A stretch of 64,000 bases of DNA from an uncultured delta proteobacterium. Its GTDB lineage: Bacteria; Myxococcota; Myxococcia; Myxococcales; Myxococcaceae. The DNA is taken from NCBI GenBank assembly GCA_963771175.1, contig CAVYSY010000046.1, forward strand, positions 32,001 through 96,000, given 5' to 3'. This document shows positions 1,521 to 15,321 of this stretch, in pieces (within the stretch, counting starts at the first letter, position 1; each line of letters starts with the position of its first letter). The notes below the pieces were generated by a model. The model did not search any database, was not told the DNA's origin, and saw only the letters and a program-made list of their open reading frames with translations. The position numbers were made by a program, and so were the translations under genes.

Positions 1521-1868
1521 ATGCGCGTCAAAAAGGGATTCAAGGCCCGTCGCCGTCGTAATAAGATTCTGAAGCTGGCCAAGGGCTACCGTGGCCGCCG
1601 CAAGAATTGCTACCGCCGGGCCAACCAGGCCGTCGAGCGCGCGCTCGACTACGCCAGCCGCGACCGCGCCGCGCGGAAGCGCAACTTCCGCTCGCTGTGG
1701 ATCGTCCGCATCAACGCGGCCGCCCGCACCGTGGGCCTGTCCTACTCCCGGCTGATCGCCGGCCTGGCCAACAAGAAGATCGCGCTGGACCGCAAGGTCC
1801 TGGCCGACCTGGCCGTGGCGGATCCCGCCGGTTTTGCCGCCGTCGCCAACATCGCGAAGGCGGCCTGA
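1521..1868 (+). CDS. rplT: 50S ribosomal protein L20
   Basis: MRVKKG...[11 protein letters not shown]...[16 protein letters not shown]...DRKVLADLA. Confidence 0.97.
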
Positions 1869-1956
1869 GAATGACGCCGGCCTTCACGGGCCGGCACCGA
1901 AAGCGCGCGGTCGCGGTCTCCTCCCGGAGGCCGCTGCCGCACGCGGGTTTGAAAAC

Positions 1957-1986
1957 GGGCTGCCCCTGAGGGCGGCCCTTTTTTTT
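1957..1986 (+). terminator. Intrinsic terminator between rplT and pheS
   Basis: GGGCTGCCC-CTGA-GGGCGGCCC stem followed by an 8-T run. Confidence 0.8.
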
Positions 1987-2021
1987 GGCCCCGGCATGGC
2001 CGGGGAGGGAGACGAAGTCCC

Positions 2022-3071
<1,050 letters not shown>

Positions 3072-3120
3072 GCGGCCGCGGTCGGACCTCGCAACTCATT
3101 TTTCGCAATCGGGTGGAACC

Positions 3121-5532
3121 GTGAAGATTTCGGTGAAGTGGCTCGGAGAGTACGTGGCGTTGCCGTCGTCCGTGGACGAGCTGGCGCGTCGGTTGACGGC
3201 GGTGGGCCTGGAGATCGAGGGCATGGAGCGCCCCGGCGAAGGCCTGCGCGGCGTGGTGGTGGCCCAGATCAAGGAGTCCGTCCAGCACCCCAATGCGGAC
3301 AAGCTGTCCGTCACGAAGATCGACATGGGCGGCAAGGATCCGCTCCAGGTGGTGTGCGGCGCCAAGAACTTCAAGGTCGGCGACAAGGTGCCGCTGGCCA
3401 CCATCGGCACGAAGTTGCCCAATGGCGTGGAGATCAAGCAGGCCCCCCTGCGCGGCGTGGACAGCTTCGGCATGCTCTGCTCCGCCAAGGAGCTGGGCAT
3501 CTCGGAGGAGTCCTCCGGCCTGCTCATCCTCTCGCCGGACGCGAAGGTGGGCATGCCCATCGCCGAGGCGCTCGGGCTGGATGACACCGTGCTGGAGGTG
3601 AACGTCACCCCCAACCGGCCGGATGCCCTGTCGCACCTGGGCGTGGCTCGCGAGGTGGCGGTGGCCACCGGCGGCGCCCTGCGCCCGCCCCAGCCCAAGC
3701 CCTCGGAGTCCGGCGCTCCCGCCTCCGAGAAGGTGAAGGTTCGGATCGAGGACCCGGTGCGCTGCCCGCGCTACGCGGCCCGCGTCATCGAGAACGTGAA
3801 GATCGGTCCTTCCCCCCAGTGGCTGCAGGACCGGCTCAAGGCCTGCGGGGTGCGCCCGATCAGCAACGTGGTGGACGTCACCAATTTCGTCCTCCTCGAG
3901 TACGGCCAGCCCTTGCACGCCTTCGACCTGGAGAAGGTCGCCGGCCAGGAGATCATCGTCCGCACCGCGAAGCCGGGCGAGAAGATGACCACGCTCGACG
4001 GCAAGGAGCGGGCGCTGGAGCCCGAGGACCTGCTCATCTGCGACCGCGACCGGGCCCAGGCCCTGGCCGGCGTGATGGGCGGCTCGGACAGCGAGGTGAG
4101 CGCGAGCACCACGCGCGTGCTGCTCGAGTCCGCCAACTTCCAGCCCTCCAGCATCCGCCGCACCTCCAAGCGCCACGGCCTGCACACCGAGGCCTCGCAC
4201 CGCTTCGAGCGCGGCGTGGACATCGACGCCGTCATCCCCGCCGTCGACCGGGCCGCGGCCCTCATCGCCGAGCTGTCCGGCGGCACGGTGGCCCCGGGCC
4301 GGGTGGACGTGTACCCGCAGCCCCAGCCGCCGCGCCGGGTGACGCTGCGCTACGCCCGGGTGGAGAAGGTGCTGGGCGTGGTCATCCCCGAGGCCGACTG
4401 CCGGCGCATCCTCGGCACCCTCGGCTTCCAGGCGGTGGAAGAGGGAAGTGGGCAGACCACCTTCGAGGTGCCCCGCGCCCGCGTGGACGTGGAGCGCGAG
4501 GAGGACCTCATGGAGGAGCTCGCCCGCGTCCACGGCTACGACAACATCCCCGCCCGGCTGCCGCGCGGCATCGCCGAGCTGGCACCCGAGCCCGCCATCT
4601 CCGAGGCCGAGCGCCGCGCCCGTCAGGCCCTGGCCGGCGTGGGGCTGAGCGAGGTGGTGAACTACTCGTTCGTCGCGCCGCGCTCCCTGGAGGTCCTCGG
4701 TGGGAAGGAGAAGCCGGTGGCGCTCCTCAACCCGCTGAGCGTGGAGCAGTCGGTGATGCGCACCAGCCTGTTGCCGGGCCTGCTGGAGAACCTCTCCCGC
4801 AGCGTGCGGCACCAGGTGGAGTCGGTCGCCCTGTACGAGATGGGTCGCGCCTACTTCCAGGAGCCCGAGGGCGGTCAGGGCCAGCGCCCGGCCGCTCGCG
4901 AGGTGCACCGGATCGCCGGCCTCGTGTACGGCCAGCGCGGTGGGCGCACCTGGACGCAGAAGGACGCGCGCGCGGACTTCTATGACGCCAAGGGCGCCCT
5001 GGAGTCCGTGCTGCACGCACTCCACGTGGAGGGCGTCCGCTTCGTCTCCGCCGAGGCCCCGGCCTTCCACCCCCGCGCCTGCGCCCGGCTGGAGCTGGCC
5101 GACGGCACCGTGCTGGGCCATGTGGGAGAGCTGCACCCCCGGGTCACCAAGGCCCTGGAGCTGCCTCGGGACGTCTTCGCCTTCGAGGTGGACACGTCGC
5201 CCCTGTACTCGGCCGCCCGGCTGGTCCCCTCATACCAGGGCCTGCCCCGCTTCCCCGCCGTGCTGCGCGACCTGGCCGTGGTGGTGCCCCTGGAACTCCA
5301 GAACGACGAGGTGCGCCGCGTCATCCTCGAGGTCGGTGCTCCCCTGGTGGAGGACGCCCTCATCTTCGACGTCTACACCGGCAAGCCCATCCCCGAGGGG
5401 CGGAAGAATCTGGCCTACGCCATCCGCTACCGCTCGCCCGAGCGCACCCTCACCGACGCCGAGGTGAGCGCCGCCCACCAGCGCATCATCTCAGAGGTCA
5501 ACCAGCGCTTGGGCGGCGCCCTGCGGACCTGA
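3121..5532 (+). CDS. pheT: Phenylalanine--tRNA ligase beta subunit
   Basis: HPNADKL, VTPNRPDALS, GQPLHAFD, RFERGVD, C-terminal FDX-ACB domain. Confidence 0.97.
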   Translation: MKISVKWLGEYVALPSSVDELARRLTAVGLEIEGMERPGEGLRGVVVAQIKESVQHPNADKLSVTKIDMGGKDPLQVVCGAKNFKVGDKVPLATIGTKLPNGVEIKQAPLRGVDSFGMLCSAKELGISEESSGLLILSPDAKVGMPIAEALGLDDTVLEVNVTPNRPDALSHLGVAREVAVATGGALRPPQPKPSESGAPASEKVKVRIEDPVRCPRYAARVIENVKIGPSPQWLQDRLKACGVRPISNVVDVTNFVLLEYGQPLHAFDLEKVAGQEIIVRTAKPGEKMTTLDGKERALEPEDLLICDRDRAQALAGVMGGSDSEVSASTTRVLLESANFQPSSIRRTSKRHGLHTEASHRFERGVDIDAVIPAVDRAAALIAELSGGTVAPGRVDVYPQPQPPRRVTLRYARVEKVLGVVIPEADCRRILGTLGFQAVEEGSGQTTFEVPRARVDVEREEDLMEELARVHGYDNIPARLPRGIAELAPEPAISEAERRARQALAGVGLSEVVNYSFVAPRSLEVLGGKEKPVALLNPLSVEQSVMRTSLLPGLLENLSRSVRHQVESVALYEMGRAYFQEPEGGQGQRPAAREVHRIAGLVYGQRGGRTWTQKDARADFYDAKGALESVLHALHVEGVRFVSAEAPAFHPRACARLELADGTVLGHVGELHPRVTKALELPRDVFAFEVDTSPLYSAARLVPSYQGLPRFPAVLRDLAVVVPLELQNDEVRRVILEVGAPLVEDALIFDVYTGKPIPEGRKNLAYAIRYRSPERTLTDAEVSAAHQRIISEVNQRLGGALRT

Positions 5533-5642
5533 GCCGCGGGGCCCGCGGGAAAACCTGAGTGAAACCGGTGGGTTGACAGCTGTCGGGGAAGGCTGTCACA
5601 GTCCGCCGGGTTCACCGCAGAGAGGGGCGCGAAGGTACTCGC

Positions 5643-6087
5643 ATGACCAAGGCGGATATCATCGAAGGCGTCTACGAGAAAGGTCGGCTTCTCCAAGAAG
5701 GAGTCGGCCGAGATCGTCGAGCTCGTCTTCGACACCTTCAAGGAGACGCTCGAACGCGGGGACAAGATCAAGATCTCGGGTTTCGGGAATTTCCAGGTGC
5801 GTCAGAAGAAGGCGCGCGTGGGCCGCAACCCCCAGACGGGGAGGGAGATCGAGATCTCGGCTCGCCGGGTGCTGACCTTCCGGCCGAGTGCGGTGCTGAA
5901 GGCCGCCCTCAACGGCGAGCAGATTCCGGAGAACCACGCCGCCCTGGATGCCGCGGAGGACGCCGCCGCCGACGCCGCCGAGGCCGCGGGGCTGGATCCC
6001 GAGGATCTCGACGAGGGGATGGAGGATCTCGAGGAGGTCGAGCCTCTCAAGGCCTCCGCGAGCGGAATGAAGGCCAAGGCCGAATGA
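5643..6087 (+). CDS. ihfA: Integration host factor alpha subunit with acidic C-terminal tail; +1 frameshift near 5680
   Basis: [13 protein letters not shown] / [53 protein letters not shown]; removing one base from GAGAAAGGTC restores the frame; conserved position after pheT. Confidence 0.9.
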
Positions 6088-6115
6088 GTTTTTGAAGGGC
6101 TGCCCGATCTCTTTC

Positions 6116-6144
6116 TTGACCCGAGAAACGGGCAGAGGCATAAG
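6116..6144 (+). promoter_or_regulatory. Putative sigma70-type promoter of the tRNA pair
   Basis: TTGACC (6116-6121), 17 nt spacer, CATAAG (6139-6144), 35 nt before tRNA-Pro. Confidence 0.45.
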
Positions 6145-6177
6145 GCAGCCACCTCGCCGACGCCGGCGGGACACACA

Positions 6178-6255
<78 letters not shown>

Positions 6256-6258
6256 ATA

Positions 6259-6301
6259 GAAGACCCTGGAGTTTTGCCTCGCGGTGGGCTCCAGGGTCTT
6301 C
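6259..6301 (+). terminator. Stem-loop after tRNA-Pro
   Basis: GAAGACCCTGGAG ... CTCCAGGGTCTTC inverted repeat. Confidence 0.55.
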
Positions 6302-6327
6302 GCCTTCTCCCTCGGGAGAGGTGCTGT

Positions 6328-6404
<77 letters not shown>

Positions 6405-6407
6405 ATA

Positions 6408-6448
6408 GAAGGGCCCGGAATCGCAAGGTTCCGGGCCCTTCGTCTTTT
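6408..6448 (+). terminator. Intrinsic terminator after tRNA-Asp
   Basis: GAAGGGCCCGGAA-TCGCAAGG-TTCCGGGCCCTTC followed by GTCTTTT. Confidence 0.7.
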
Positions 6449-6556
6449 CCGCCCCTCCACCCCCCTGGGGGGTACACCGAAAAGCCGGCGAGTGACGTAG
6501 ACTCCGCGTGCGCTGCCGTGGGGCCTCCGCTCCCCCGGCCGAGGAGACACGTGACG

Positions 6557-8028
6557 ATGTTTTCGAGATGGACCGTGGGGCGGCAGTTCCTGCTGGGCTT
6601 GTTCCTGATGTGTTCGTTGATCGGGGCATTCATCCTCCTGAACCGTATGGGCACCTATGGTTTGACGGGCGCCTCCAACCTCGTGCTGCGGAGCCAGAAG
6701 ACGCTCCTCCAGATCGAGCGGATCCTCTTCCCACATCAAGGATGCGGAGATGGGGCAGCGCGACTACCTCCTCACCGGCAACGAGGCCTCCCTCGCGCCC
6801 TACCGCCAGGCCCTGGACGGCGTGCCCAAGGAACTCGAAGCTCCTGCGCGAGTCCCTCTCCGACAACCCCGAGCAGCTACGGCGTCTGGAGGCGCTGAAG
6901 GCTCTCGTCGAGCAGCTGCTGGCCAGCCTGAGCGCCAACGTGGAGCTTCGCCGCGACCAGGGCTTCGAGGCCGCCCTGGCCCGCGTCAACACGGGTGAGG
7001 GCTCGCGGCAGACGGACAGCGTCTACGCGGCGATTGCGGACCTGCGCCAGCAGGAGGAGCAACGGCTCGCGGAGCGCGATGGGCAGGAGGAGAAGGAGAT
7101 GCGCTCCCTGGATCGGTTCTACGTCATCGATGGCGCCGCGCTCCTGTTCTTCTGTGGGCTGATCGCCCTGCTCATCGGCAGGAACCTGGAGCGGAGGCTC
7201 CAGACCGCCATCGCGCAGGTGCAGGGCTCGTCGGCCGAACTCCATACGGCGGCCTCGCAGCAGAGCACCGGCGCGCGGGAGCAGGCCTCGGCCACCACGG
7301 AGATCTCCACCACCGTCAAGGAGCTGCTGTCCACGTCGCGGCAGATCGCCGGCAGCGCGCAGCAGGTGGCGCGCGTGGCGGACGAGACGGCCGGCGCCGC
7401 CCGCACCGGCAACGAGACGGTGCAGCACGCCCAGGAGGCCATCGACGCGGTGCGCCGCCAGGTGGACGCCATCGTCAATCACATGCTGGAGCTGGGCAAG
7501 CGCTCCCAGGAGATCGGCGGCATCCTGGACATCATCAACGAGCTGGCCGAGCAGACGAACATCCTCGCCATCAACGCCACCATCGAGAGCGCCGGGGCGG
7601 GGGAGCACGGCAAGCGCTTCGCCGTGGTGGCCGAGGAGATCCGCAAGCTGGCGGACCGCGTGGGCAGCTCCACCAAGGACATCCGCGTGCTCATCGACGA
7701 GATCCGCGCCGCCTCCAACACCACCATCATGGCCACCGAGGACGGCTCCAAGGCGGTGCAGAGCAGCGCGAAGCAGTTCTCCGACGTGGCCGGCAGCTTC
7801 CGGCGCATCGCCGAGCTGGTGCGCGCCAACCTGGACGTGGCGCGGGAGATCGAGCTGAGCACCCAGCAGCAGACGACGGCGGTGGAGCAGGTCAACACCG
7901 CCATCCTCGAGGTGGCGCAGACGGCCCGTCAGGCCGAGTCCACCTCCTCGCAGACGCTGCAGACGGCCAACCAGCTCTCCCAGCTCTCCAAGCAGCTCAA
8001 CGCCATCCTCGACTCGAAGGCCGCCTGA
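6557..8028 (+). CDS. CHASE3-domain methyl-accepting chemotaxis protein; two +1 frameshifts (near 6730 and 6839)
   Basis: TM1 ([21 protein letters not shown]), CHASE3 motif [21 protein letters not shown]...SDNPEQ spread over three frames, TM2, MCP hairpin [34 protein letters not shown]. Confidence 0.88.
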
Positions 8029-8029
8029 G

Positions 8030-8638
8030 CCTGTCGACCAGGACGTCCAAGGCCTCTACGATGACCTTGGCCAGAAGTACGACACGTGGACCCTTCTGCC
8101 GGACCGCCTCTTTCTCGACGGGTGGCGACGCGAGCTGCTCTCGAACGCACGCGGTGACGTGCTCGAGGTGGCCGTTGGGACGGGGAAGAACCTCCAGTTC
8201 TACCCCGAGGGTTGCCGGGTGACGGGCGTGGACTTCTCGCGGTCGATGCTCGACGAGGCCTCGCGCCGCGCCCGCGCCTTGGGGCGTGTGTTCGAGCCGC
8301 GGGAGGGCGACGTCACCGCGTTGCCGTTCGCCGATGCGAGCTTCGATACGGTGGTCTGCACGCTCGGGGCCTGCACGTTTGATGATCCGCTCGCCGCGTT
8401 TCGCGAGATGCGCCGGGTGTGCCGCACCGATGGGTCGGTGCTGTTGCTGGAGCACGTGCTCCCACGGGACCGGCCCCTGGCGTGGCTCGCGAAGGCCATC
8501 ACCCCCTTCGCGCGCAGGGCGGTGGGCTGCAATCCCAACCGCGACACGCTGGCGCTCGTGCGCGAGGCGGGGCTGCACGTCGTCTCGGTGCGCGGGCGAG
8601 CGCGGGACATCGTGCTTTCGGTGGTCGCGCGCCCCTGA
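8030..8638 (+). CDS. Class I SAM-dependent methyltransferase (start codon not evident)
   Basis: VLEVAVGTG motif I, VTGVDFSRSML, LPFADASFDTVV, LLLEHV; the frame is open and plausible (GLYDDLGQKYD...WRRELL) upstream of the GTG at 8159. Confidence 0.8.
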   Translation, partial: PVDQDVQGLYDDLGQKYDTWTLLPDRLFLDGWRRELLSNARGDVLEVAVGTGKNLQFYPEGCRVTGVDFSRSMLDEASRRARALGRVFEPREGDVTALPFADASFDTVVCTLGACTFDDPLAAFREMRRVCRTDGSVLLLEHVLPRDRPLAWLAKAITPFARRAVGCNPNRDTLALVREAGLHVVSVRGRARDIVLSVVARP

Positions 8639-8681
8639 CGCGTACCCGGCCCCGCTCCTGGTGGGGCCGGTGGGGTGTCCC

Positions 8682-9281
8682 TCACACCGGCCCGCGTGCC
8701 CCTCGCCGTGACAGCCACTGGGCGAACTGCGCGTATACCGAGTGGGCCTGCCACCGGGCGAACTGCGCGTTGCGCTCGGCCGGTGACAGCGCGGAGAGGG
8801 GCTTCGAGGCTCCCTCCGGAATGAAGACGTTCCACGTCGTCGACCAGGCCTCGGCGCAGCGGGTGCCGTCCACCTCCAGGGCCAGGGTCCCCACGCCCTG
8901 CTTGTCGACGAAGGTGTGGGTCACCCCGTCCTCGTCCACGTAGACCAGGGCGCCGACGAAGCGGCAGGTCCGGGACGGCAGCCCGTTGGCGAGCCTCAAC
9001 AGGCCGGCCACCCCGATCGTCTCGAGCATGAATTTCGTCACCGGTCCTGGGAAGCCCGCAAGCCCGTCCACGCACAGGCCGCTGTCCTCCACCACCAGCG
9101 GCTCCTCGATCATCGAGAACGCCTGCCGGGCCTTGTCCAGTGCCACGGCCTCCAGCGTGCTCCCCTGGGGCTCGATGATCGGGAGCTCGATGCGCTGCAA
9201 CTCGGCGCCCACCGCCGCGAGGCACTCCGCGAGGACCTTCGCCTTCCCGCGGTTGGTGCTCACGAACTTGATGCTCTCCAC
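8682..9281 (-). CDS. Ham1/ITPase-family nucleoside triphosphate pyrophosphatase, divergent
   Basis: FVSTNRGK, EPQGSTLEAVALDKA, VVEDSGLCVDGLAGFPGP motifs; GAGGAG SD before GTG 9281 (alternative ATG 9320); lacks FGYDP and SHR motifs. Confidence 0.85.
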   Translation of the reverse strand: MESIKFVSTNRGKAKVLAECLAAVGAELQRIELPIIEPQGSTLEAVALDKARQAFSMIEEPLVVEDSGLCVDGLAGFPGPVTKFMLETIGVAGLLRLANGLPSRTCRFVGALVYVDEDGVTHTFVDKQGVGTLALEVDGTRCAEAWSTTWNVFIPEGASKPLSALSPAERNAQFARWQAHSVYAQFAQWLSRRGARGPV

Positions 9282-9324
9282 GGAACGCTCTCCTCGTGTC
9301 GCGTCGGGATTCAGAAGCATGTCA

Positions 9325-10437
9325 TCAGGCCGCTACCAGGGACACGCCATCGAGCGCGCGCAGGAGCTGCTCCTCGGTGACGAGATCCACGCCCTTGCAG
9401 CGCCGCAGCCGGTCCACCCAGGTGCTGGTCAGCTCCTGGATGACCGGGCGGTACTCGGGCGGGGTGGAGGCGACACAGGTGCGGTAGTCCGAGATGACGT
9501 GGGCGGCGGTGCCGTGGATGCCCACCTCGTGGATGGCCTTGCGGATGGGGCGGGCCAGCTTCTCCAGCAGGGCGTGCGAGTGCGTCGGCTCCCGGTACAC
9601 CTCCGCCACGGAGGCGCAGGCCGTGGACCGGCAGATCTCCCACAGGGCCGCCAGGTCCGCGCGCAGGTCCGGGTATTTCTCGAGCGCCAGCAGCAACGGC
9701 CTCGTCACGGCCCCCATCAGCAGATCGTCATTCTCGCCCTCGGTCCAGCGGTTCTCGACGATGTTCACGATGTCGTCCACGTCCTGGAAGATGCGCCCGA
9801 AGGACTCCGCCACGCTGAGGGGGAGGGGGTCGCTCCCGTTGAGCAGCAGCGCCGTGTCCAGCCCGAAGGCGACTCCGGCCGTGTTCTCGCTGTAGCGGTT
9901 CTCCAGCCACTGATCGAACAGGTTCTCGGTGGGATAGATGTTGTTCCGCTCCCAGAGCTGGAGGGAGTACAGCTCGACGAAGAGGTTCGTCGTGGCATCG
10001 AGCAGGCGCGGGTCGATGCGCGCCGCCTCCCGGGTGGCGATCGCGACCAGGGTGCTCACGAAGGGAGCCGTGCTGGCCTCGCCGAAGTTGATGGGGAAGG
10101 TGGGCCGTCCCGAGCGCATGGGCGTGCGATCCACCGTGTCATCCACGATGGCGCAGGCCTCCATGCTGAGCATCATCACGGGCAGGAATTTCCGGTGCGA
10201 GGCATGGATGCCTCCCGAGGCCTCGCCCAGGACCAGGAACATGAGCGGCAGCAGCATGAACGACGGTTGCGGGTTGTCGCGCACCACCGTGTCGTAGAAG
10301 GGCCGCAGCTTCTCGGGCAGGGGGAGGGTGTCGAGCACCCGTCGGGCCTCCTCGACGAGTGGCGCGAAGACCTCTCGCCGGCGGGCGAAGACCCCTTGGA
10401 AGTACCGGGGATAGCGCAGGGGGACCAGTTCCTTCAT
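9325..10437 (-). CDS. Trans-isoprenyl diphosphate synthase / class I terpene synthase-fold protein, divergent
   Basis: FARM IVDDTVDRTPMRSGRPT...FG, SARM-like FGRIFQDVDDIVN, GENDDLLMGAVTRP; ATG 10437 lies 4 nt after the LOG stop. Confidence 0.8.
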   Translation of the reverse strand: MKELVPLRYPRYFQGVFARRREVFAPLVEEARRVLDTLPLPEKLRPFYDTVVRDNPQPSFMLLPLMFLVLGEASGGIHASHRKFLPVMMLSMEACAIVDDTVDRTPMRSGRPTFPINFGEASTAPFVSTLVAIATREAARIDPRLLDATTNLFVELYSLQLWERNNIYPTENLFDQWLENRYSENTAGVAFGLDTALLLNGSDPLPLSVAESFGRIFQDVDDIVNIVENRWTEGENDDLLMGAVTRPLLLALEKYPDLRADLAALWEICRSTACASVAEVYREPTHSHALLEKLARPIRKAIHEVGIHGTAAHVISDYRTCVASTPPEYRPVIQELTSTWVDRLRRCKGVDLVTEEQLLRALDGVSLVAA

Positions 10438-10441
10438 GTCG

Positions 10442-11008
10442 TCACCCCGCCACCGTCCGCGCCGCCGGCTGGACACCGAGCGCGGGAAGGAGCTCCTGCA
10501 CCTGGGACACCACGGTGAACAGCGCCTCGGCCCGCGCGTACGCGAAGCCGTGTCGCACCACCGAGTCGGCGAGCGCGACGAGCGGCTGGAAGAAGCCCCG
10601 CGTGTCGAGCAGCACGATGGGCTTGTCGAACATGCGCATCTGCTTCCAACTGATGACCTCCAGGGTCTCCTCCAGCGTCCCGAAGCCGCCCGGCAGGACG
10701 ACGAAGGCATCGGCCAGCTCCGCCATCCGCCGCTTGCGCTCGTGCAGATCGGCGGTCCAGATGAGCTCGCTCAGCCCACGGTGCGCGACCTCGTACCGTT
10801 CCAGATCCCGGGGCATGACACCCACCACTCGACCCCCCCGGGCGAGCGCGGCATCCGCGATGGCGCCCATCAGTCCTGCTCGGGCACCTCCGTACACGAG
10901 CTGGATTCCCTGGTCTGCCAGGGCCGTGCCCAGGGCTGAGGCGGCGCTCATATGCTCTTCGTACACACCCGGTGAGGATCCACAGAAAACACAAACGGAT
11001 TTCGTCAT
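10442..11008 (-). CDS. LOG family nucleotide 5'-monophosphate phosphoribohydrolase (TIGR00730-like)
   Basis: SVCVFCGSS, LVYGG..GLMG, HERKRRM, LPGGFGTLEE (PGGxGTxxE signature), KPIVLL. Confidence 0.92.
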   Translation of the reverse strand: MTKSVCVFCGSSPGVYEEHMSAASALGTALADQGIQLVYGGARAGLMGAIADAALARGGRVVGVMPRDLERYEVAHRGLSELIWTADLHERKRRMAELADAFVVLPGGFGTLEETLEVISWKQMRMFDKPIVLLDTRGFFQPLVALADSVVRHGFAYARAEALFTVVSQVQELLPALGVQPAARTVAG

Positions 11009-11158
11009 GAGTGGGGGATGGGGGGCGAGGGGGGGGCTCGACTCTTTGACGCCCCATTGTCTACCCGAATGACTCCGATTCACAACGAGCGACCAGTCAG
11101 GCTGCTGACGCAGTGGGTCGGGTTGTCCATCCGAGGTCTATACTCCGCGCCCTGAATG

Positions 11159-12514
11159 ATGGCGGACAAACTCAAGGAACAGCTCCGGCGTACGTGGCGA
11201 CGTGACCTGTGGCTCACGCTCGCACCCGTGGTCCTCATCATCGGCGCCGCGTTCGCCGCCACGTTCTACTTCGTCAAGCCCGCGCCTCCCAAGACGCTCG
11301 TCCTCGCGATGGCTCCGGACGAGGGTGGATTCCGGTACTTCGCACGGCGGTACAAGGAGGTCCTCGCGCGGGACGGCATCTCGTTGGTGCTGCACCCGAC
11401 AAAGGGCTCGGTCACCAACGTCGAGCTCCTCGCCAACGACACCGCGGGGGTCGACGTCGCGTTCGTGCAGAGCGGCTCGGTGGGTGGAAAGAAAGCGGCG
11501 AACATCGTCTCGCTCGGCAGCCTCTCGTACGTGCCCCTGTGGGTCTTCTACCGGGGCGAGCCTATCGACGACGTGCTCGGGCTGCGGGGCAGGCGCATCG
11601 CCGTCGGGCCCACCGAGAGCGGGACGCGCGCGCTCGCCCTCACGCTCCTGGAGGCGACCGGCGCCGCCGCGGCCCCGACGGAGCTCCTGCCCCTCGAGCG
11701 CGACGAGGCCATCGCGCAGCTCAAGCAGGGCCACATCGACGCGGTGGTCCTCGTCTCTCCCGCCGAGTCGCCGGCCATCCAGAAGCTCGCCGCGACACCC
11801 GGAGTGCGGCTCCTCAGCTTCGCGCGCGCCGATGCCTTCGTCCGCCGGTTCCCCTACCTGTCGAAGCTCGTGCTGCCGCGGGGCGTGTTCAATCTCGAGG
11901 CGGACATCCCCGAGCGCGACGTGGTGCTGCTCGCGCCGACCGCGAACCTCGTGGCTCGGGACACGCTGCATCCAGCCCTCGCGTACCTGCTCATGCGCGC
12001 CGCGAGCGAGATCCACGGCGGCGCCGGGATGCTCGACCGCTCGGGCGAGTTCCCGGCACCGCTGGAGACCGACTTCCCCCTCAGCGGCGAGGCCCGTCGC
12101 TATTACCAGGCCGGCGTCCCGCTCCTGCAACGCTACCTGCCGTTCTGGGCCGCGAACCTCGTTGACCGGCTCTGGGTGATGCTCGTGCCGATCATCGCCG
12201 TGGTGGTGCCCCTCGGGCGGATCGTGCCGGCGCTGTACCTGTGGCGGTTGCGGTCCCGCATCTTCCGCTGGTACGCGCGCCTCAAGGAGCTCGAGCTCCA
12301 GCTCGAGGAGGACCTCGACAGGCTGATGCTCGAGGACATGCTCAAGCGGCTGGAGGAGATTGAGCGCGCGGTGAACCGGATCCCCATGCCCGTCTCGTAC
12401 GCGGAGAACCTCTACTTCTTCCGCGAGCACATCGACCTCGTCCGCCGGCGGATCATCCGGCGGCTCGCGGGTGGCCCCGAGAGCACCGACGCCGCGACGC
12501 GGGTGACCGTCTGA
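11159..12514 (+). CDS. TAXI-family TRAP solute-binding protein, membrane anchored with C-terminal TM/helical domain
   Basis: N-terminal TM, TKGSVTNVELL, VDVAFVQSG, LRGRRIAVGPTESGT, LQRYLPFWAA + TM. Confidence 0.8.
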   Translation: MADKLKEQLRRTWRRDLWLTLAPVVLIIGAAFAATFYFVKPAPPKTLVLAMAPDEGGFRYFARRYKEVLARDGISLVLHPTKGSVTNVELLANDTAGVDVAFVQSGSVGGKKAANIVSLGSLSYVPLWVFYRGEPIDDVLGLRGRRIAVGPTESGTRALALTLLEATGAAAAPTELLPLERDEAIAQLKQGHIDAVVLVSPAESPAIQKLAATPGVRLLSFARADAFVRRFPYLSKLVLPRGVFNLEADIPERDVVLLAPTANLVARDTLHPALAYLLMRAASEIHGGAGMLDRSGEFPAPLETDFPLSGEARRYYQAGVPLLQRYLPFWAANLVDRLWVMLVPIIAVVVPLGRIVPALYLWRLRSRIFRWYARLKELELQLEEDLDRLMLEDMLKRLEEIERAVNRIPMPVSYAENLYFFREHIDLVRRRIIRRLAGGPESTDAATRVTV

Positions 12515-12535
12515 AGGGCACCCGCTCGGGCCGTG

Positions 12536-14290
12536 TCAGGGGTCCGAGAGCGCCAGCCGCGTCCCCACCGGCGGCGGGGTGAACCGGCGCAGCCCGTCCG
12601 ATCTCGATTGCAGGAACACGAGCGAGGGAGCCTCGAGCGGCGCATCGAACTCGAAGCCCACGCGGGTCGGCCCCTCGGCATCCGCGGCCAGCACCGTCAC
12701 CCTCATGCCCTCCAGCTCCACCCGCGCGCCCACGCCGAGCTTGTGCTCGGGTCCGCGGAGGCTCTGCTCGATATCGCTGGCGAGGAAGCGGCCCTGGGGG
12801 AGCTCCAGCTCGAGCGACGCCGGCCCGGTGCGGGTGAGGATGGGGGACACCGGCGCCAGCGACAGCGGCCACCACGCGCGCGGGAGCGGCTGGTCTCGCA
12901 GGGCCCACATGACGGGGGTGTACAGGGCCACCCCCATGTCCTTGGCATCGAGGAGCACCACCCGCTGCTGGGGAAGACGCTGGAGATCCAACTCGGCCTG
13001 CGCCTTGAGCGCCATCTCCTCGGTGCTCGTGCCGAGCTGGCGGATCAGCATCGACATCGCCGGCCAGCTCACGGGCGCGAGGACGAGGTGCAGGAGCGCG
13101 AGCACCCCACCCGCCACGACGAGGCCTCGCGGACGCCAGCCCTGCTTGCGCGAGCGCCACGCCTGGAGGAGCACCACGGCCAGGAGCACCGAGGCCCCCA
13201 GGCCAGGCACGAGCAGCAGCCGCCCCATGGGCATGGTGGAGGCCACGGGCAGCAGGGACAGCGCCGCCCCGGCGGAGAGCCAGCGGCAGTGCCGGCGCTC
13301 CTCCTCGGAGAGGCCGTGCCAGGAGGTGCGCACCAGGAGCATGAATAGCGCGAGTCCGGCGAGCCCCATGCCCACCAGCACGGGCCGGCTGCTCGGGCTC
13401 AGCGCCCAGAGGTCCACGGGCACTCCCAGCAAGCCACCGGCGAGCGCGGGCACCCGGCCGAGCGCGGCCGACAGGTATTGGACGGGCTCGCCCACGGGAT
13501 CCACATACATGGTGGAGCCTCGGGCGCCGTACCCGAGCGCCTTGTAGAGCCCGAGGTAGGCAAGCGCGAGCACCGCCGCGGGGACGAGGGCACGGAGCCG
13601 CTCCGCCCTCGTGCCCCGCGCGCCGAGCAGCTCATAGGCCAGCAGGTAGGCGAAGACGCCCAGGGCGGTCTCTCCCGCCGTCAGGCTCACGGCGAGTGCG
13701 AGCAGGGAGAGAGGCAGGGCCCAGGACTTGCGGGCCTCGCGCCACTCGAGGTGCAGCCACAGGCCCCCCAGGGCGAGGGTGGTGGACACCAGGGCATTGC
13801 GGTTGGCGAGCCACCCCACGGGGAGCAGGTGCGCATCGTCCACGGTGAAGAGCAGCAGCGCGAGCGCTCCGAGCGCCCCCGGGAGGAAGCGCCGCAGCAG
13901 GGCGCCGAAGAGGGCCACCAGGCCGAGGTGCCAGACCACCGAGTGCAGGTGGTAGCCCACCGGGTTGCGGCCGAAGAGTCGATGGTCCAGCACCGCGAGC
14001 GCGCTCGACAGGGGGCGCCAGAAGGAGATCTTCAGCTCGGGCAGCGTCCACCAGGGATAGGGCCCCTCCTGCACGATGCGCCGCATGCCCTCGGCGGGGC
14101 CTCCGGCGAAGCGGAAGAGATCGAAGGGCGAGCCCAGGGGCCACCTGCCCTCGAGGATGAGGAGGTGGATGTTGTCATCCAGGGCGAAGCCCATGCCGAG
14201 CGTGGGCAGGGACAGCACGAGGGCGGCCAGCAGGGTGAGCCAGTAGGCGCGCGAGGAGTCGAGCCACCGCTTCGGGGAAGGGTTTTCCAT
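12536..14290 (-). CDS. Multi-pass membrane protein, GT-C glycosyltransferase-like
   Basis: N-terminal TM followed by GFALDD, FWRPLSS, GYHLHSVVWH, VGWLANRN; many hydrophobic segments. Confidence 0.6.
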   Translation of the reverse strand: MENPSPKRWLDSSRAYWLTLLAALVLSLPTLGMGFALDDNIHLLILEGRWPLGSPFDLFRFAGGPAEGMRRIVQEGPYPWWTLPELKISFWRPLSSALAVLDHRLFGRNPVGYHLHSVVWHLGLVALFGALLRRFLPGALGALALLLFTVDDAHLLPVGWLANRNALVSTTLALGGLWLHLEWREARKSWALPLSLLALAVSLTAGETALGVFAYLLAYELLGARGTRAERLRALVPAAVLALAYLGLYKALGYGARGSTMYVDPVGEPVQYLSAALGRVPALAGGLLGVPVDLWALSPSSRPVLVGMGLAGLALFMLLVRTSWHGLSEEERRHCRWLSAGAALSLLPVASTMPMGRLLLVPGLGASVLLAVVLLQAWRSRKQGWRPRGLVVAGGVLALLHLVLAPVSWPAMSMLIRQLGTSTEEMALKAQAELDLQRLPQQRVVLLDAKDMGVALYTPVMWALRDQPLPRAWWPLSLAPVSPILTRTGPASLELELPQGRFLASDIEQSLRGPEHKLGVGARVELEGMRVTVLAADAEGPTRVGFEFDAPLEAPSLVFLQSRSDGLRRFTPPPVGTRLALSDP

Positions 14291-14349
14291 GGGGTTCCTT
14301 CGTCCAGGTGCCCCACCGACAACCGCGCCGGATCCCGGGTTCCAGGCGC

Positions 14350-15321
14350 CTACTCGCGCTGGAGAGGCCGAGCGTAGATGCCCAGGTGGTTGGCCACGGG
14401 GCGCTCCCAGAAAGTCAGTCGGAAGTTGATGGGCGAGTTGGCCCACCGGGCGCGTCCGTTCGCGTCCCGCCGGACGAGCGTAGCGGAGCCGCCGCCGTCG
14501 AGCTGGATGCCGGTGTGCCCGCCATGCCTCAAGAGGATGTCCGCCACCTCCGCGAGCGTCGCGCCCTCGCTGTAGCCGGGCTGCTTGCCATCGACCACCA
14601 GCAGCAGCAGGTAGCGCCCGGTGGCATCGACGGCGGCGGCGACGCGAGGGTAGGGCACGGCGTTGAACCCTTTCGCCGGGTGCACCACGGGCGAGCCATC
14701 CCGCACCACATACCCCAGGCCCGAGATGGCCTGCCAGACCTCGCCGGGAGGCCGCTCGAAGCCGAGGCGCCGGTCTCGCGACAGGTACAGGGTGACCGCG
14801 TCCTCGTTGCTCTCCCCGTAGAGCATCCCACCCGAGGCCGCCGGGCCGACGACGCGGACCGGGTCCCCGACGTGGGGCGCGTAGTCGAGGGGATGGTGGA
14901 CGTGGAACGGGTAGAAGAAGTTGGCGTTGATCGCCACCTGCACGCCATGGCGGACCGCGAACGAGCTGGTCGTATCGGCGAGGAGATCTCCCGCCGCCGA
15001 GGGTTGGCTCGGGGTCACCCGGAAGTCGATGCCGGGCTCCGTCAGATCGACGCGGACGAGGTGCACGACGATCGGCCGTGGCTGTCGGAGCACCTCGCGC
15101 TCGTACCGCACACCGGCGAACCAATCCTCTCGCGTCGGCTCCGGCGGATTCCGGTGGGTGAACCAGGACCAGTATCCCCCCACCGCGAGTCCGAGCACCC
15201 CCAGAGCGCTCAACGAGAGGCCGCTCGTCCACCGGAGCCACCGGCGAACACGCCACCGGCGCACCACCGCCACGCTGACGGCGAGCACCCCGCAGGAGAT
15301 CGCCAGGATCAGTGGGCCCAT
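14350..15321 (-). CDS. Phosphodiester glycosidase (NAGPA) family protein
   Basis: VAINANFF, YPRVAAA, LLVVDGKQPGYSEGATL, QLDGGGSATL, ERPVANHLGI. Confidence 0.85.
   Translation of the reverse strand: MGPLILAISCGVLAVSVAVVRRWRVRRWLRWTSGLSLSALGVLGLAVGGYWSWFTHRNPPEPTREDWFAGVRYEREVLRQPRPIVVHLVRVDLTEPGIDFRVTPSQPSAAGDLLADTTSSFAVRHGVQVAINANFFYPFHVHHPLDYAPHVGDPVRVVGPAASGGMLYGESNEDAVTLYLSRDRRLGFERPPGEVWQAISGLGYVVRDGSPVVHPAKGFNAVPYPRVAAAVDATGRYLLLLVVDGKQPGYSEGATLAEVADILLRHGGHTGIQLDGGGSATLVRRDANGRARWANSPINFRLTFWERPVANHLGIYARPLQRE

Follow-up and report, generated by a model that had tools for sequence, protein, structure and literature searches.

The described systems closest to the operon reported here are the cytokinin pathways of bacteria and plants, in which an IPT-type transferase acts first, activation then proceeds either directly through LOG, a nucleoside 5'-monophosphate phosphoribohydrolase, or in two steps through a nucleotidase and a nucleosidase, and cytokinin oxidase (CKX) degrades the products. 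To our knowledge, it is always IPT-family enzymes that make cytokinin-type molecules; the fas operon of Rhodococcus fascians is said to carry CKX, P450 and IPT genes. According to the accessible text of a review, plant IPTs yield tri- and diphosphates that need trimming before LOG can act, the nucleotidase-plus-nucleosidase route exists, and it is listed as unknown which enzyme leads from iPRTP/iPRDP to iPRMP, on which LOG acts (PMC12066119). No dedicated Ham1 pyrophosphatase is described for cytokinin pathways in the literature that we searched.

Attachment of terpenyl or prenyl groups to adenine is also found outside these pathways. The Mycobacterium tuberculosis tuberculosinyl-adenosine transferase Rv3378c is an analogous case in which a chain-elongation prenyltransferase fold is reused for terpenyl-adenine attachment, but its fold is that of the cis-prenyltransferases, it acts on a nucleoside, it is not accompanied by LOG or Ham1, and it is unrelated in sequence to the trans-fold protein studied here. 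Its reaction is described in the accessible part of PMC7321100. In the TvAPT locus of Trichormus/Nostoc, adenine prenylation is co-clustered with a PF00348-type gene and gives long-chain cytokinin analogues; as far as the accessible part of the preprint goes, the transferase there belongs to the IPT family, the synthase is thought to elongate the donors, and no LOG gene is adjacent (10.64898/2026.04.03.716432). Vitiosangium cumulatum, which belongs to the same bacterial family as the source of our sequence, makes (2-hydroxy)sorangiadenosine, an N6-terpenyl adenosine that incorporates 15N5-AMP; its cluster, assigned in silico, comprises a terpene cyclase and two ~510-aa 'transferases', with no LOG, isoprenyl-diphosphate-synthase-like or Ham1 gene in the published Table 4 (PMC7321100, accessible part). 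Since this gene list differs from that of the present operon, we set aside the identity of the two, and with it the link to sorangiadenosine suggested by a preceding sequence-only reading of the same DNA.

The operon lies in a 64,000-nt stretch of DNA, hereafter the window. Open reading frame calls and translations reveal three genes that run in the same direction on the minus strand, in the order LOG, trans-isoprenyl-diphosphate-synthase-like (IDS-like), Ham1. The features referred to below are as follows.

10442–11008, minus strand: LOG-family nucleoside 5'-monophosphate phosphoribohydrolase, 188 aa, ATG at 11008; opens the operon.
9325–10437, minus strand: divergent trans-IDS-fold protein, 370 aa, PF00348 41.6 bits.
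8682–9320, minus strand: divergent Ham1/ITPase-fold NTP pyrophosphatase, 212 aa, alternative start 9281, PF01725 82.6 bits.
11009–11155, no strand: divergent intergenic region of 147 nt between the LOG start and a TAXI-type binding-protein gene.
6179–6255, plus strand: tRNA-Pro.
6328–6404, plus strand: tRNA-Asp.

The junction sequences, TGA-cgac-ATG between LOG and the IDS-like gene and TGA-tgac-ATG between the IDS-like gene and Ham1, bear out the tight co-directional spacing proposed earlier: both gaps are 4 nt, the second widening to 43 nt if the later Ham1 start is used. That later start, a GTG at 9281, agrees with the 199-aa Ham1 protein record P0232. With the alternative GTG start at 11083, LOG would gain a Pro-rich extension, which the 188-aa Vitiosangium homologue (locus L001) lacks. 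The 147-nt intergenic region is the presumed promoter region; a scan of positions 8000–11600 against the sigma-70 consensus found no promoter-like site, so this role is presumed from position. A terminator scan of the same positions gave two overlapping terminator-like sites (11498–11516, minus strand), no excess over the 0.9 expected from shuffled sequence; both fall inside the neighbouring transporter gene, upstream of the operon. An Rfam search of window positions 5500–13000 and of eight Chloroflexota loci found no riboswitch, with tRNAs the sole matches. The tRNA-Pro/tRNA-Asp pair ends 2.3 kb from the Ham1 gene and has no evident bearing on the operon. The surroundings (pheT, tRNA, chemoreceptor and transporter genes) are syntenic across Archangiaceae, and the GC content is unremarkable. 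In six loci, a CHASE3 chemoreceptor gene is conserved nearby.

The product of the middle gene scores only 41.6 bits with PF00348, above the cutoff of 27 that assigns it to the polyprenyl synthetases in Pfam. Its AF2 model (pLDDT 93.3, pTM 0.92) predicts an all-helical trans-IDS fold, the best PDB matches being medium- and long-chain trans-IDS with TM scores of 0.74–0.79 (target-normalised) at 14–19% identity. A search that scored 7,997 candidates returned 83 proteins at E ≤ 0.001, 81 of them at E ≤ 1e-53 and the other two at 1.9e-5 and 2.7e-4. Among 1.84 billion proteins there were 34 representatives at E ≤ 1e-30, after which the score dropped from 109 to 64 bits. In a tree, the family is split from five canonical IDS (SH-aLRT 99) by a long stem branch of 2.73. 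Judged by sequence, this is a very small, sharply bounded and distinct family. The closest metagenomic homologues (P0004–P0007) show 90–81% identity.

We compared the motifs of ten family members with those of ten canonical IDS. The family retains DDxxD, R108, Q218, D221-D222 and D238, and shares with solanesyl-, hepta- and octaprenyl-diphosphate synthases, besides the fold, the DDxxD motif together with the Arg that first follows it, and FQ..DD. The first Asp-rich motif reads DDT(V/I)D. The second reads DD(I/L/V)V(N/G/S) in all ten family rows and lacks the third Asp that is present in nine of the ten canonical rows, so the family does not have two complete DDxxD motifs. Further residues of the medium- and long-chain enzymes, all present in the ten canonical rows, are replaced in every family row: the Lys/Arg of GK..xR(P/S), the His of 'LH' (E93), the second Arg of RRG (S109), the Lys of KT and the Lys of GK (E235). 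From FPPS enzymology we take these residues to bind IPP and diphosphates. The family has instead its own invariant set, GENDD/E228/R230/W162-E163. The replacement of all residues at the presumed IPP-binding positions argues against chain elongation, and we propose that the prenyl group is transferred to a nucleotide instead. As the losses include both lysines (KT and GK) as well as the third Asp in the second motif, even binding of a prenyl diphosphate is presumptive. A class I terpene cyclase was considered and rejected, since D221 and E228 stand one residue closer together than in (N/D)Dxx(S/T)xxxE, the metal-binding pattern (NSE/DTE) of these cyclases, and since the listed fold matches are all prenyl-diphosphate synthases or prenyltransferase domains of bifunctional synthases.

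The first and last genes encode putative nucleotide-processing enzymes. LOG scores 193.6 bits with TIGR00730 (cutoff 96.35) and 136.8 bits with PF03641, carries both family motifs, GGARAGLMG (GGxxGxMG) and LPGGFGTLEE (PGGxGTxxE), and is a canonical member of the LOG family; against the named cytokinin LOG equivalog NF058542 it reaches 140.8 bits, under the cutoff of 300. Its closest solved relative, 5zbj (172.7 bits), is annotated as a 'putative cytokinin riboside 5'-monophosphate phosphoribohydrolase'.

Ham1 belongs to the Ham1/ITPase family by its 82.6 bits with PF01725 (cutoff 22.5) but stays below the equivalog cutoff of TIGR00042 (83.3 against 145.35 bits). Among solved structures it is closest to archaeal Mj0226 (1b78, 70.3 bits) and PH1917. 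It falls in a subfamily of 81 proteins, beyond which the E-value jumps from 4e-34 to 2e-17. In a 27-row alignment, N23, K26, E50, K63 and F90-P91-G92 show no variation and E78-D79 hardly any. The motifs GFG(Y/W)DP and SHR are replaced throughout the subfamily by AWSxLW and xxRWQxHSVY, the canonical state (GFGWDP, SHR) being read from the outgroup rows P0315 and P0317, both of canonical type, and from an archaeal alignment. Presumably the replaced motifs form the base pocket that selects hypoxanthine or xanthine, and residues of the N23/K26/E50/K63 type bind phosphate and metal. The phosphate- and metal-binding residues thus appear intact and the base pocket rebuilt. The house-cleaning NTP pyrophosphatases ITPase, RdgB and Mj0226 share the fold family and the phosphate/metal residues with the window protein, which in contrast lacks their base-pocket motifs, scores below the equivalog and adjoins an IDS-like gene. 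The subfamily is specific to the LOG/IDS-like system.

We then compared the neighbourhoods of 41 IDS-like loci (40 fetched and the window, with 8-kb flanks) from Myxococcota, Acidobacteriota and Chloroflexota. At least one of LOG, Ham1, HAD phosphatase and nucleoside hydrolase lies next to the IDS-like gene in 32 of the 41, all from Myxococcota and Acidobacteriota. LOG is a partner in 21 loci, in ten of which it forms one open reading frame with the IDS-like gene (the protein search found 17 such fusions). The other partners are a HAD phosphatase in 17 loci, the operon-type Ham1 subfamily in 12, an inosine-uridine nucleoside hydrolase in seven and CKX in one (L023). The gene orders include LOG, IDS-like, HAD; LOG, IDS-like, Ham1; the IDS-like–LOG fusion followed by Ham1; HAD, IDS-like, an unknown gene and the hydrolase; and, in Acidobacteriota, LOG, Ham1, IDS-like. 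Because the same families recur beside IDS-like homologues elsewhere, in several orders and as fusions, the adjacency in the window goes beyond chance, and the linkage of the IDS-fold protein to LOG and Ham1 on which the sequence-only reading depended holds up. Many of the loci are close relatives, among them ten Archangium fusion loci and six Herpetosiphon-type loci, so that the independent observations amount to about 6–8 arrangements and not 41.

The window IDS-like protein nests among rows with the order LOG, IDS-like, HAD (SH-aLRT 99), and the window Ham1 is 75–82% identical to Ham1 of the fusion clade. Ham1 and HAD fill one and the same slot, and the partners of the family together mirror the direct and the two-step routes of cytokinin activation, both of which occur here as alternatives. 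The HAD phosphatase scores at superfamily level only, with nucleotidase and epoxide-hydrolase-N-terminal-type phosphatase models below cutoff, so its substrate could also be a prenyl phosphate. The AF2 model of an IDS-like–LOG fusion has a pTM of 0.60 and a disordered 17-residue linker (362–378, pLDDT <50) and is thus silent on a fixed interface between the two domains. A search for fused forms of greater length found none, in itself weak evidence.

One difference from cytokinin pathways of the fas/tzs type concerns the transferase. Of their accessory genes, LOG occurs in the window and in 21 of the 41 loci and CKX in L023 alone, but an IPT-type transferase is absent from the window, where no neighbour matches PF01715 or PF01745, and from 40 of the 41 loci (Pfam, 216 neighbour ORFs within the 8-kb flanks); the conserved core is the trans-IDS-fold protein.

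We hypothesize that the operon makes a free, isoprenoid-substituted, cytokinin-like purine base. The IDS-like protein would use the Asp-rich/Mg2+ motifs that it retains to bind an allylic diphosphate and would prenylate an adenine nucleotide, Ham1 would cut the modified NTP to NMP and PPi, and LOG would split the NMP into the free base and ribose 5-phosphate; in sister lineages, a HAD phosphatase and a nucleoside hydrolase would reach the same end by way of the nucleoside. We infer the substrates and products of all these steps from the operon structure, fold, family boundary, motif pattern and conserved linkage and fusions described above, and assign the complete scheme a probability of roughly 45%. 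That the unit handles an isoprenoid-modified purine of some kind is probable. The narrower proposition, in which prenylation of the nucleotide is the work of the IDS-like protein itself, has slightly less than an even chance; we favour a coupling role over the supply of a prenyl donor and do not regard the choice as settled. More tentative still is the broadest form of the hypothesis, in which the family would be a new class of nucleotide N-prenyl (terpenyl) transferases on the trans-IDS fold, founding a route by which predatory soil bacteria (Myxococcota and some Acidobacteriota) reach cytokinin-like prenylpurines without IPT, and Ham1 would be the first example of the 'missing' step from prenylated ATP to the LOG substrate. 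The cytokinin-like reading made from the sequence alone has gained from the HAD and nucleoside hydrolase alternatives, from the CKX of L023 and from an HMG-CoA reductase at L025; its prenylation step stays a proposal.

The locus L023 bears on the choice between coupling and donor supply. Its CKX is full-length and genuine (234.7 bits against the maize enzyme, residues 27–467; PF09265 97.6 bits), and CKX, a P450 gene and an IPT-like gene are co-directional with HAD and the IDS-like gene, the three kinds of gene that the fas operon reportedly combines. The IPT-like protein scores 57.1 bits with TIGR00174 (model positions 2–100), its best solved match is a tRNA-IPT (51 bits), and tblastn with it matched itself alone. 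The earlier claim of a pathway without a MiaA/IPT-type transferase is accordingly not universal; at L023 the coupling may fall to another enzyme, and the IDS-like protein may supply the donor. In a general form of this alternative, the unit would still be cytokinin-like, with the IDS-like protein only making or reshaping the prenyl donor, an IPT/MiaA-type transferase encoded elsewhere coupling it to adenine, and Ham1, HAD, LOG and hydrolase trimming the product. A precedent exists in TvAPT, an IPT-family adenine prenyltransferase that co-clusters with a polyprenyl synthase-like gene (accessible part of preprint 10.64898/2026.04.03.716432). We nevertheless consider it unlikely, given that an IPT-type gene occurs in just one of the 41 loci within 8-kb flanks, as against trimming enzymes linked in 32 and fused in ten, and that the IDS-like protein lacks the canonical residues at the presumed IPP-binding positions.

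A second alternative dispenses with isoprenoids: the genes would form a purine-nucleotide salvage or house-cleaning module, with the metal/diphosphate site of the IDS-like protein acting on a diphosphate of nucleotide origin, such as an NTP or PRPP, or with the protein serving in regulation. Every conserved partner does act on nucleotides, several canonical prenyl-diphosphate contacts are gone from the family, and its Chloroflexota members adjoin STAS and histidine-kinase-type ATPase genes. Counting against the favoured scheme, the nine Chloroflexota loci all lack a nucleotide-processing neighbour, having a STAS-domain gene upstream instead, and the Herpetosiphon proteins have long branches and an altered GENDD motif. 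The fold and both Asp-rich motifs, however, are those of prenyl-diphosphate enzymes, and we know of no trans-IDS fold acting on non-isoprenoid diphosphates. Cytokinin oxidase, whose substrates carry isoprenoid side chains, adjoins the L023 member. HMG-CoA reductase shares one open reading frame with the IDS-like member at L025 and lies ~4 kb from the operon at L029; the single frame at L025 may be the artefact of an indel, as the junction is Arg-rich and of low complexity and the hydrolase gene next to it falls into two ORFs. Taken against this evidence, a salvage module is improbable.

Finally, the anti-phage role offered as an alternative in the sequence-only reading, here taken as Ham1 and LOG depleting ATP with the IDS-like protein as sensor, draws on the LOG/SLOG and HAM-like domains known from defence systems and on matches of LOG to the PsyrA model (weak, 25.6 bits, PADLOC) and of Ham1 to the HAM-like protein KomB (45.1 bits), but is very improbable, as PADLOC gives no match for the IDS-like and Ham1 proteins, no homologues lie on plasmids or phages at E ≤ 1e-10, the locus sits in the syntenic surroundings of unremarkable GC content described above, and CKX and HMG-CoA reductase are ill-suited partners for defence.

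Neither the gene trio nor an IDS-fold nucleotide prenyltransferase is described in the literature searched, which covered open sources outside subscription journals and bioRxiv supplements, in agreement with the earlier impression that the trio is not a known system. If the favoured coupling role is correct, a second, unrelated fold performs the coupling reaction, which would amount to a new enzyme class and provide a genome-mining handle for terpene-purine natural products. Ham1, with its rebuilt base pocket and its gene between or beside those of LOG and the candidate coupling enzyme, is a concrete candidate for the tri-/diphosphate-to-monophosphate step left vacant in the accessible text of the 2024 review (PMC12066119). 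Around a single core enzyme, the direct and two-step activation routes would be exchanged as modules, a clean natural experiment on how pathways evolve, and the question arises what role a cytokinin-like signal might have in gliding, predatory bacteria.

Two other observations are recorded here. Cystobacter fuscus strains are named among the compared extracts in the legends of Figures S11–S12 of PMC7321100 (accessible part); two other C. fuscus strains carry LOG, IDS-like and HAD in this order (L002 and L014), with no link to sorangiadenosine shown. An ESM Atlas search with the IDS-like protein and an uncharacterised partner of ~140 aa gave no usable lead for either; 12% of the members of one cluster bear a SpoIIAA-like label, which we note as a lead only.

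The operon occupies the minus strand of the window, where ORF calls and translation delineated the following genes in and around it.

3121–5532: pheT
6179–6404: tRNA-Pro and tRNA-Asp
6508–8028, plus strand: CHASE3 methyl-accepting chemotaxis protein
8159–8638 (frame 8027–8638), plus strand: UbiE/COQ5-like SAM methyltransferase ORF, convergent on the operon
8682–9320, minus strand: Ham1-like protein, 212 aa
9325–10437, minus strand: IDS-like protein with a weak polyprenyl synthetase match, 370 aa
10442–11008, minus strand: LOG, 188 aa
11156–12514, divergent from the operon: TAXI-type binding protein

The junctions read TGA-cgac-ATG (LOG/IDS-like) and TGA-tgac-ATG (IDS-like/Ham1), which makes the gaps of 4 nt and 4–43 nt given by the sequence-only reading exact; the Ham1-like collection record P0232 is 199 aa long, consistent with a GTG start at 9281. 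LOG is a clear family member (TIGR00730, 193.6 bits; cutoff 96.35). The IDS-like protein matches PF00348 at 41.6 bits (cutoff 27) and falls far under the cutoff of every named IDS equivalog model, and the Ham1-like protein matches PF01725 at 82.6 bits and TIGR00042 at 83.3 bits, under the cutoff of 145.35. The G+C content of the window is ~68–70%, and no signs of an island or a defence locus were found among the neighbours of the operon in the window.

Sequence comparison places the middle protein in a family that is both small and distinct. In a word-indexed search, 83 IDS-like proteins were identified among 7,997 candidates scored, 81 of them at E ≤ 1e-53 and the other two at 1.9e-5 and 2.7e-4. 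In a profile search of all 1.84 billion representatives, 34 were recovered at E ≤ 1e-30, and scores fell from 109 to 64 bits, the value at which ordinary polyprenyl synthases start. The closest named relative, from Vitiosangium sp. GDMCC 1.1324, is 77% identical, which assigns the window to a myxobacterium of the Archangiaceae. The AlphaFold model (pLDDT 93.3, pTM 0.92) has as its best solved structural neighbours exclusively medium- and long-chain trans-IDS enzymes (TM ≤ 0.79 normalised to target, 14–19% identity), in agreement with a profile search of PDB sequences (5h9d, 52 bits; solanesyl-PP synthases).

Ten family members were aligned with ten ordinary IDS from the profile search. The family retains DDT(V/I)D as its first Asp-rich motif, with the Arg that follows (R108); of the second motif it retains the core FQ..DD (Q218, D221, D222), and D238 is kept as well. 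In all ten IDS-like rows, substitutions have removed both the Lys and the Arg from GK..xR(P/S), the His from ‘LH’ (Glu93 in the window protein), the second Arg from RRG (Ser109), and the Lys from KT and from GK (Glu235 at the latter); the third Asp of the second Asp-rich motif is Asn, Gly, or Ser. New family invariants are H81, W162-E163, E228, R230, and G234-E235-x-D237-D238. In FPPS enzymology, the missing basic residues are those that hold the IPP diphosphate, and two are lysines in contact with the allylic diphosphate. From this pattern we infer an enzyme that still binds a metal-diphosphate but has given up elongation with IPP.

A scan covering 185,579 species genomes yielded 40 loci with IDS-like homologues (denoted L001 and onwards), 41 with the window. 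Their neighbours were assessed by tblastn with several queries per family, by ORF clustering, and by Pfam and NCBIfam searches of 216 neighbour ORFs, and fall into three groups.

Gene arrangements at the 41 loci (IDS::LOG, one fused ORF; HAD, HAD phosphatase)
Group 1, LOG>IDS>HAD: L001, L002, L003, L005, L007, L014 (n = 6)
Group 1, LOG>IDS, contig ends ahead of the third gene: L004, L022 (n = 2)
Group 1, LOG>IDS>Ham1: window (n = 1)
Group 1, IDS::LOG, then Ham1: L006, L008–L012, L015, L020, L021 (n = 9)
Group 1, IDS::LOG without Ham1: L013 (n = 1)
Group 1, LOG>Ham1>IDS, two Acidobacteriota: L026, L029 (n = 2)
Group 2, HAD adjoining IDS: Polyangiales, Sandaracinaceae, one Archangium (n = 11)
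Group 3, STAS-domain gene upstream, no adjacent nucleotide enzyme: Chloroflexota (n = 9)

The linkage on which the sequence-only reading depended thus recurs elsewhere: within 2.5 kb of the IDS-like gene, LOG is found at 21 of the 41 loci, HAD at 17, Ham1 at 12, a nucleoside hydrolase at seven, and a cytokinin oxidase (CKX) at one, and the protein search returned 17 IDS::LOG fusion proteins of 555–578 aa. The hydrolases, all in Group 2, are of the inosine-uridine type (PF01156) and score 121–146 bits where intact; in L025 the gene is broken into two ORFs with weaker scores. Of the 41 loci, 32 have one or more enzymes that trim nucleotides or nucleosides, although many loci are close kin and the independent observations are nearer six to eight. 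The linkage is kept across gene order, strand, fusion state, and phylum, which argues against simple inheritance of one arrangement. Several metagenomic contigs, matched through identical lengths, appear to carry a stand-alone IDS-like gene together with an operon-type Ham1, which is suggestive only.

Two loci appear to tie the family to cytokinin and isoprenoid metabolism. L023, from Archangium minus Cbm 6, has a co-directional run (1709–9071) that ends in the HAD>IDS pair and encodes an IPT-like (isopentenyltransferase-like) protein (TIGR00174, 57.1 bits, model positions 2–100; tRNA-IPT 2qgn, 51 bits), a PLP enzyme, an IMPDH/GMP-reductase-like protein, a P450, and a full-length cytokinin oxidase/dehydrogenase (PF09265, 97.6 bits; maize CKX2, 234.7 bits, residues 27–467). 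This run appears to be a candidate cluster for making a modified, myxobacterial cytokinin. At L025 (7971–11808), a single 836-aa ORF encodes both the IDS-like domain and an HMG-CoA reductase of class-II type and is followed by the split nucleoside hydrolase. The two are certainly adjacent; the ORF is either a real fusion or a product of indel errors in the MAG, the latter being possible given the Arg-rich junction and the hydrolase split in two. A further HMG-CoA reductase gene lies ~4 kb from the LOG>Ham1>IDS operon of L029.

By its scores, the operon Ham1 is likewise a subfamily of its own, with 90 proteins found among 828 candidates, 81 of them at E ≤ 4e-34 and the next at 1.6e-17. In a 27-row alignment, the phosphate/metal residues N23, K26, E50, K63, and FPG do not vary, and E78-D79 is nearly invariant. 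GFGWDP and SHRG, the motifs that form the hypoxanthine/xanthine pocket, are replaced by AWSxLW and xxRWQxHSVY in the operon-type rows and kept in both canonical-type outgroup rows (P0315 and P0317); the replacement was also viewed against archaeal alignments. We infer a working NTP pyrophosphatase with an altered base preference. In a quick IQ-TREE analysis of 39 IDS-like members and five canonical IDS, the window protein clusters (SH-aLRT 99) with those Vitiosangium and Cystobacter loci that have the order LOG>IDS>HAD. Yet the third gene of its operon is a Ham1, 75–82% identical to the Ham1 proteins of the Archangium fusion clade, and in that clade the IDS domains share only 44–47% identity with the window protein. 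Ham1 and HAD have thus replaced one another at the same position, which suggests equivalent roles in phosphate removal.

The partners of the IDS-like protein match both established routes of cytokinin-nucleotide activation, described in PMC12066119 as direct action of LOG on the monophosphate and as a nucleotidase followed by a nucleosidase. A bacterial effector of the nucleoside hydrolase family has also been reported to be linked to cytokinin production (10.1101/2021.07.05.451090). In the simplest scheme, which we propose here, the IDS-like protein would ionise an allylic diphosphate and alkylate an adenine nucleotide, Ham1 would trim the triphosphate product to the monophosphate, and LOG would release the free base; for plants, the enzyme of the triphosphate-to-monophosphate step is called an open question in PMC12066119. 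The order ‘modify first, trim later’ is favoured, since a Ham1 or a LOG that worked on the bulk pool of ATP or AMP would waste it, and since a LOG joined to the IDS-like domain is consistent with consecutive steps. Linkage, fusions, and the CKX and HMG-CoA reductase neighbours support the cytokinin-like product of the sequence-only reading, in which the IDS-like protein is the putative prenylating enzyme; the further proviso of that reading, that no IPT-type transferase takes part, is not universal in view of L023.

The IPT-like gene of that locus makes it credible that the IDS-like protein only provides or reshapes a prenyl donor, to be used by an IPT whose gene lies at another site; the cyanobacterial TvAPT locus, as presented in a preprint (10.64898/2026.04.03.716432), is a precedent. 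However, an IPT-type gene was seen at just one of the 41 loci, the conserved partners are trimming enzymes, and the residues of the IPP site have been lost. Neighbours such as CKX and HMG-CoA reductase are at odds with a role in nucleotide salvage alone. The anti-phage module offered earlier as an alternative finds no support, as PADLOC matched LOG alone, and weakly, and no homologue of the family turned up on plasmids or phages at E ≤ 1e-10.

The direct nucleotide-prenylating chain would belong to a known pathway type, prenylpurine/cytokinin biosynthesis, with an uncharacterised enzyme family at its centre as the new element. Neither the trio, nor LOG fused to a polyprenyl-synthetase domain, nor an IDS-fold nucleotide prenyltransferase was found described in the full-text literature, a body that leaves most subscription journals outside. 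The suggested connection to sorangiadenosine finds no support, as the proposed Vitiosangium cluster (PMC7321100) has a gene list different from that of the operon.

Several smaller features accompany these loci. The CHASE3 chemotaxis protein adjoins the operon, whatever its form, in six Archangiaceae loci (window, L001, L006, L012, L013, L021), which may reflect synteny by descent or a sensory link. The UbiE/COQ5-like frame is open, with a genuine-looking N-terminus from ~8030, and its first ATG/GTG/TTG (8159) is already within the methyltransferase domain (Pfam match from residue 2); the ORF may have an unusual start codon or a 5'-truncation, and it is not conserved across related loci. A 906-aa ORF at 12536–15321 (minus strand), has no Pfam match and shows a weak GC contrast between codon positions; it overlaps an ORF of 323 aa matching NAGPA phosphodiester glycosidase and as drawn is probably not a real gene.

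In five Group 2 loci, a ~140-aa gene of no assigned family directly follows the IDS-like gene. It encodes a product of ~130–144 aa and lies between the IDS-like gene and the nucleoside hydrolase gene in L024 (9099–9521), L028 (9105–9539), L030 (9131–9517), L031 (8961–9335), and L032 (9320–9706); the product has no Pfam or NCBIfam match and a weak SpoIIAA/STAS-like lead (Atlas).

The Chloroflexota members, which are without nucleotide partners, long-branched, and altered in the GENDD motif, may for these reasons do something else. In Herpetosiphon, a non-coding stretch of ~670 nt with no Rfam family match precedes the IDS-like gene (L037, 7298–7970; also L033–L038), and DeoC aldolase, phosphoribosyltransferase, and NUDIX genes lie 3–6 kb downstream.
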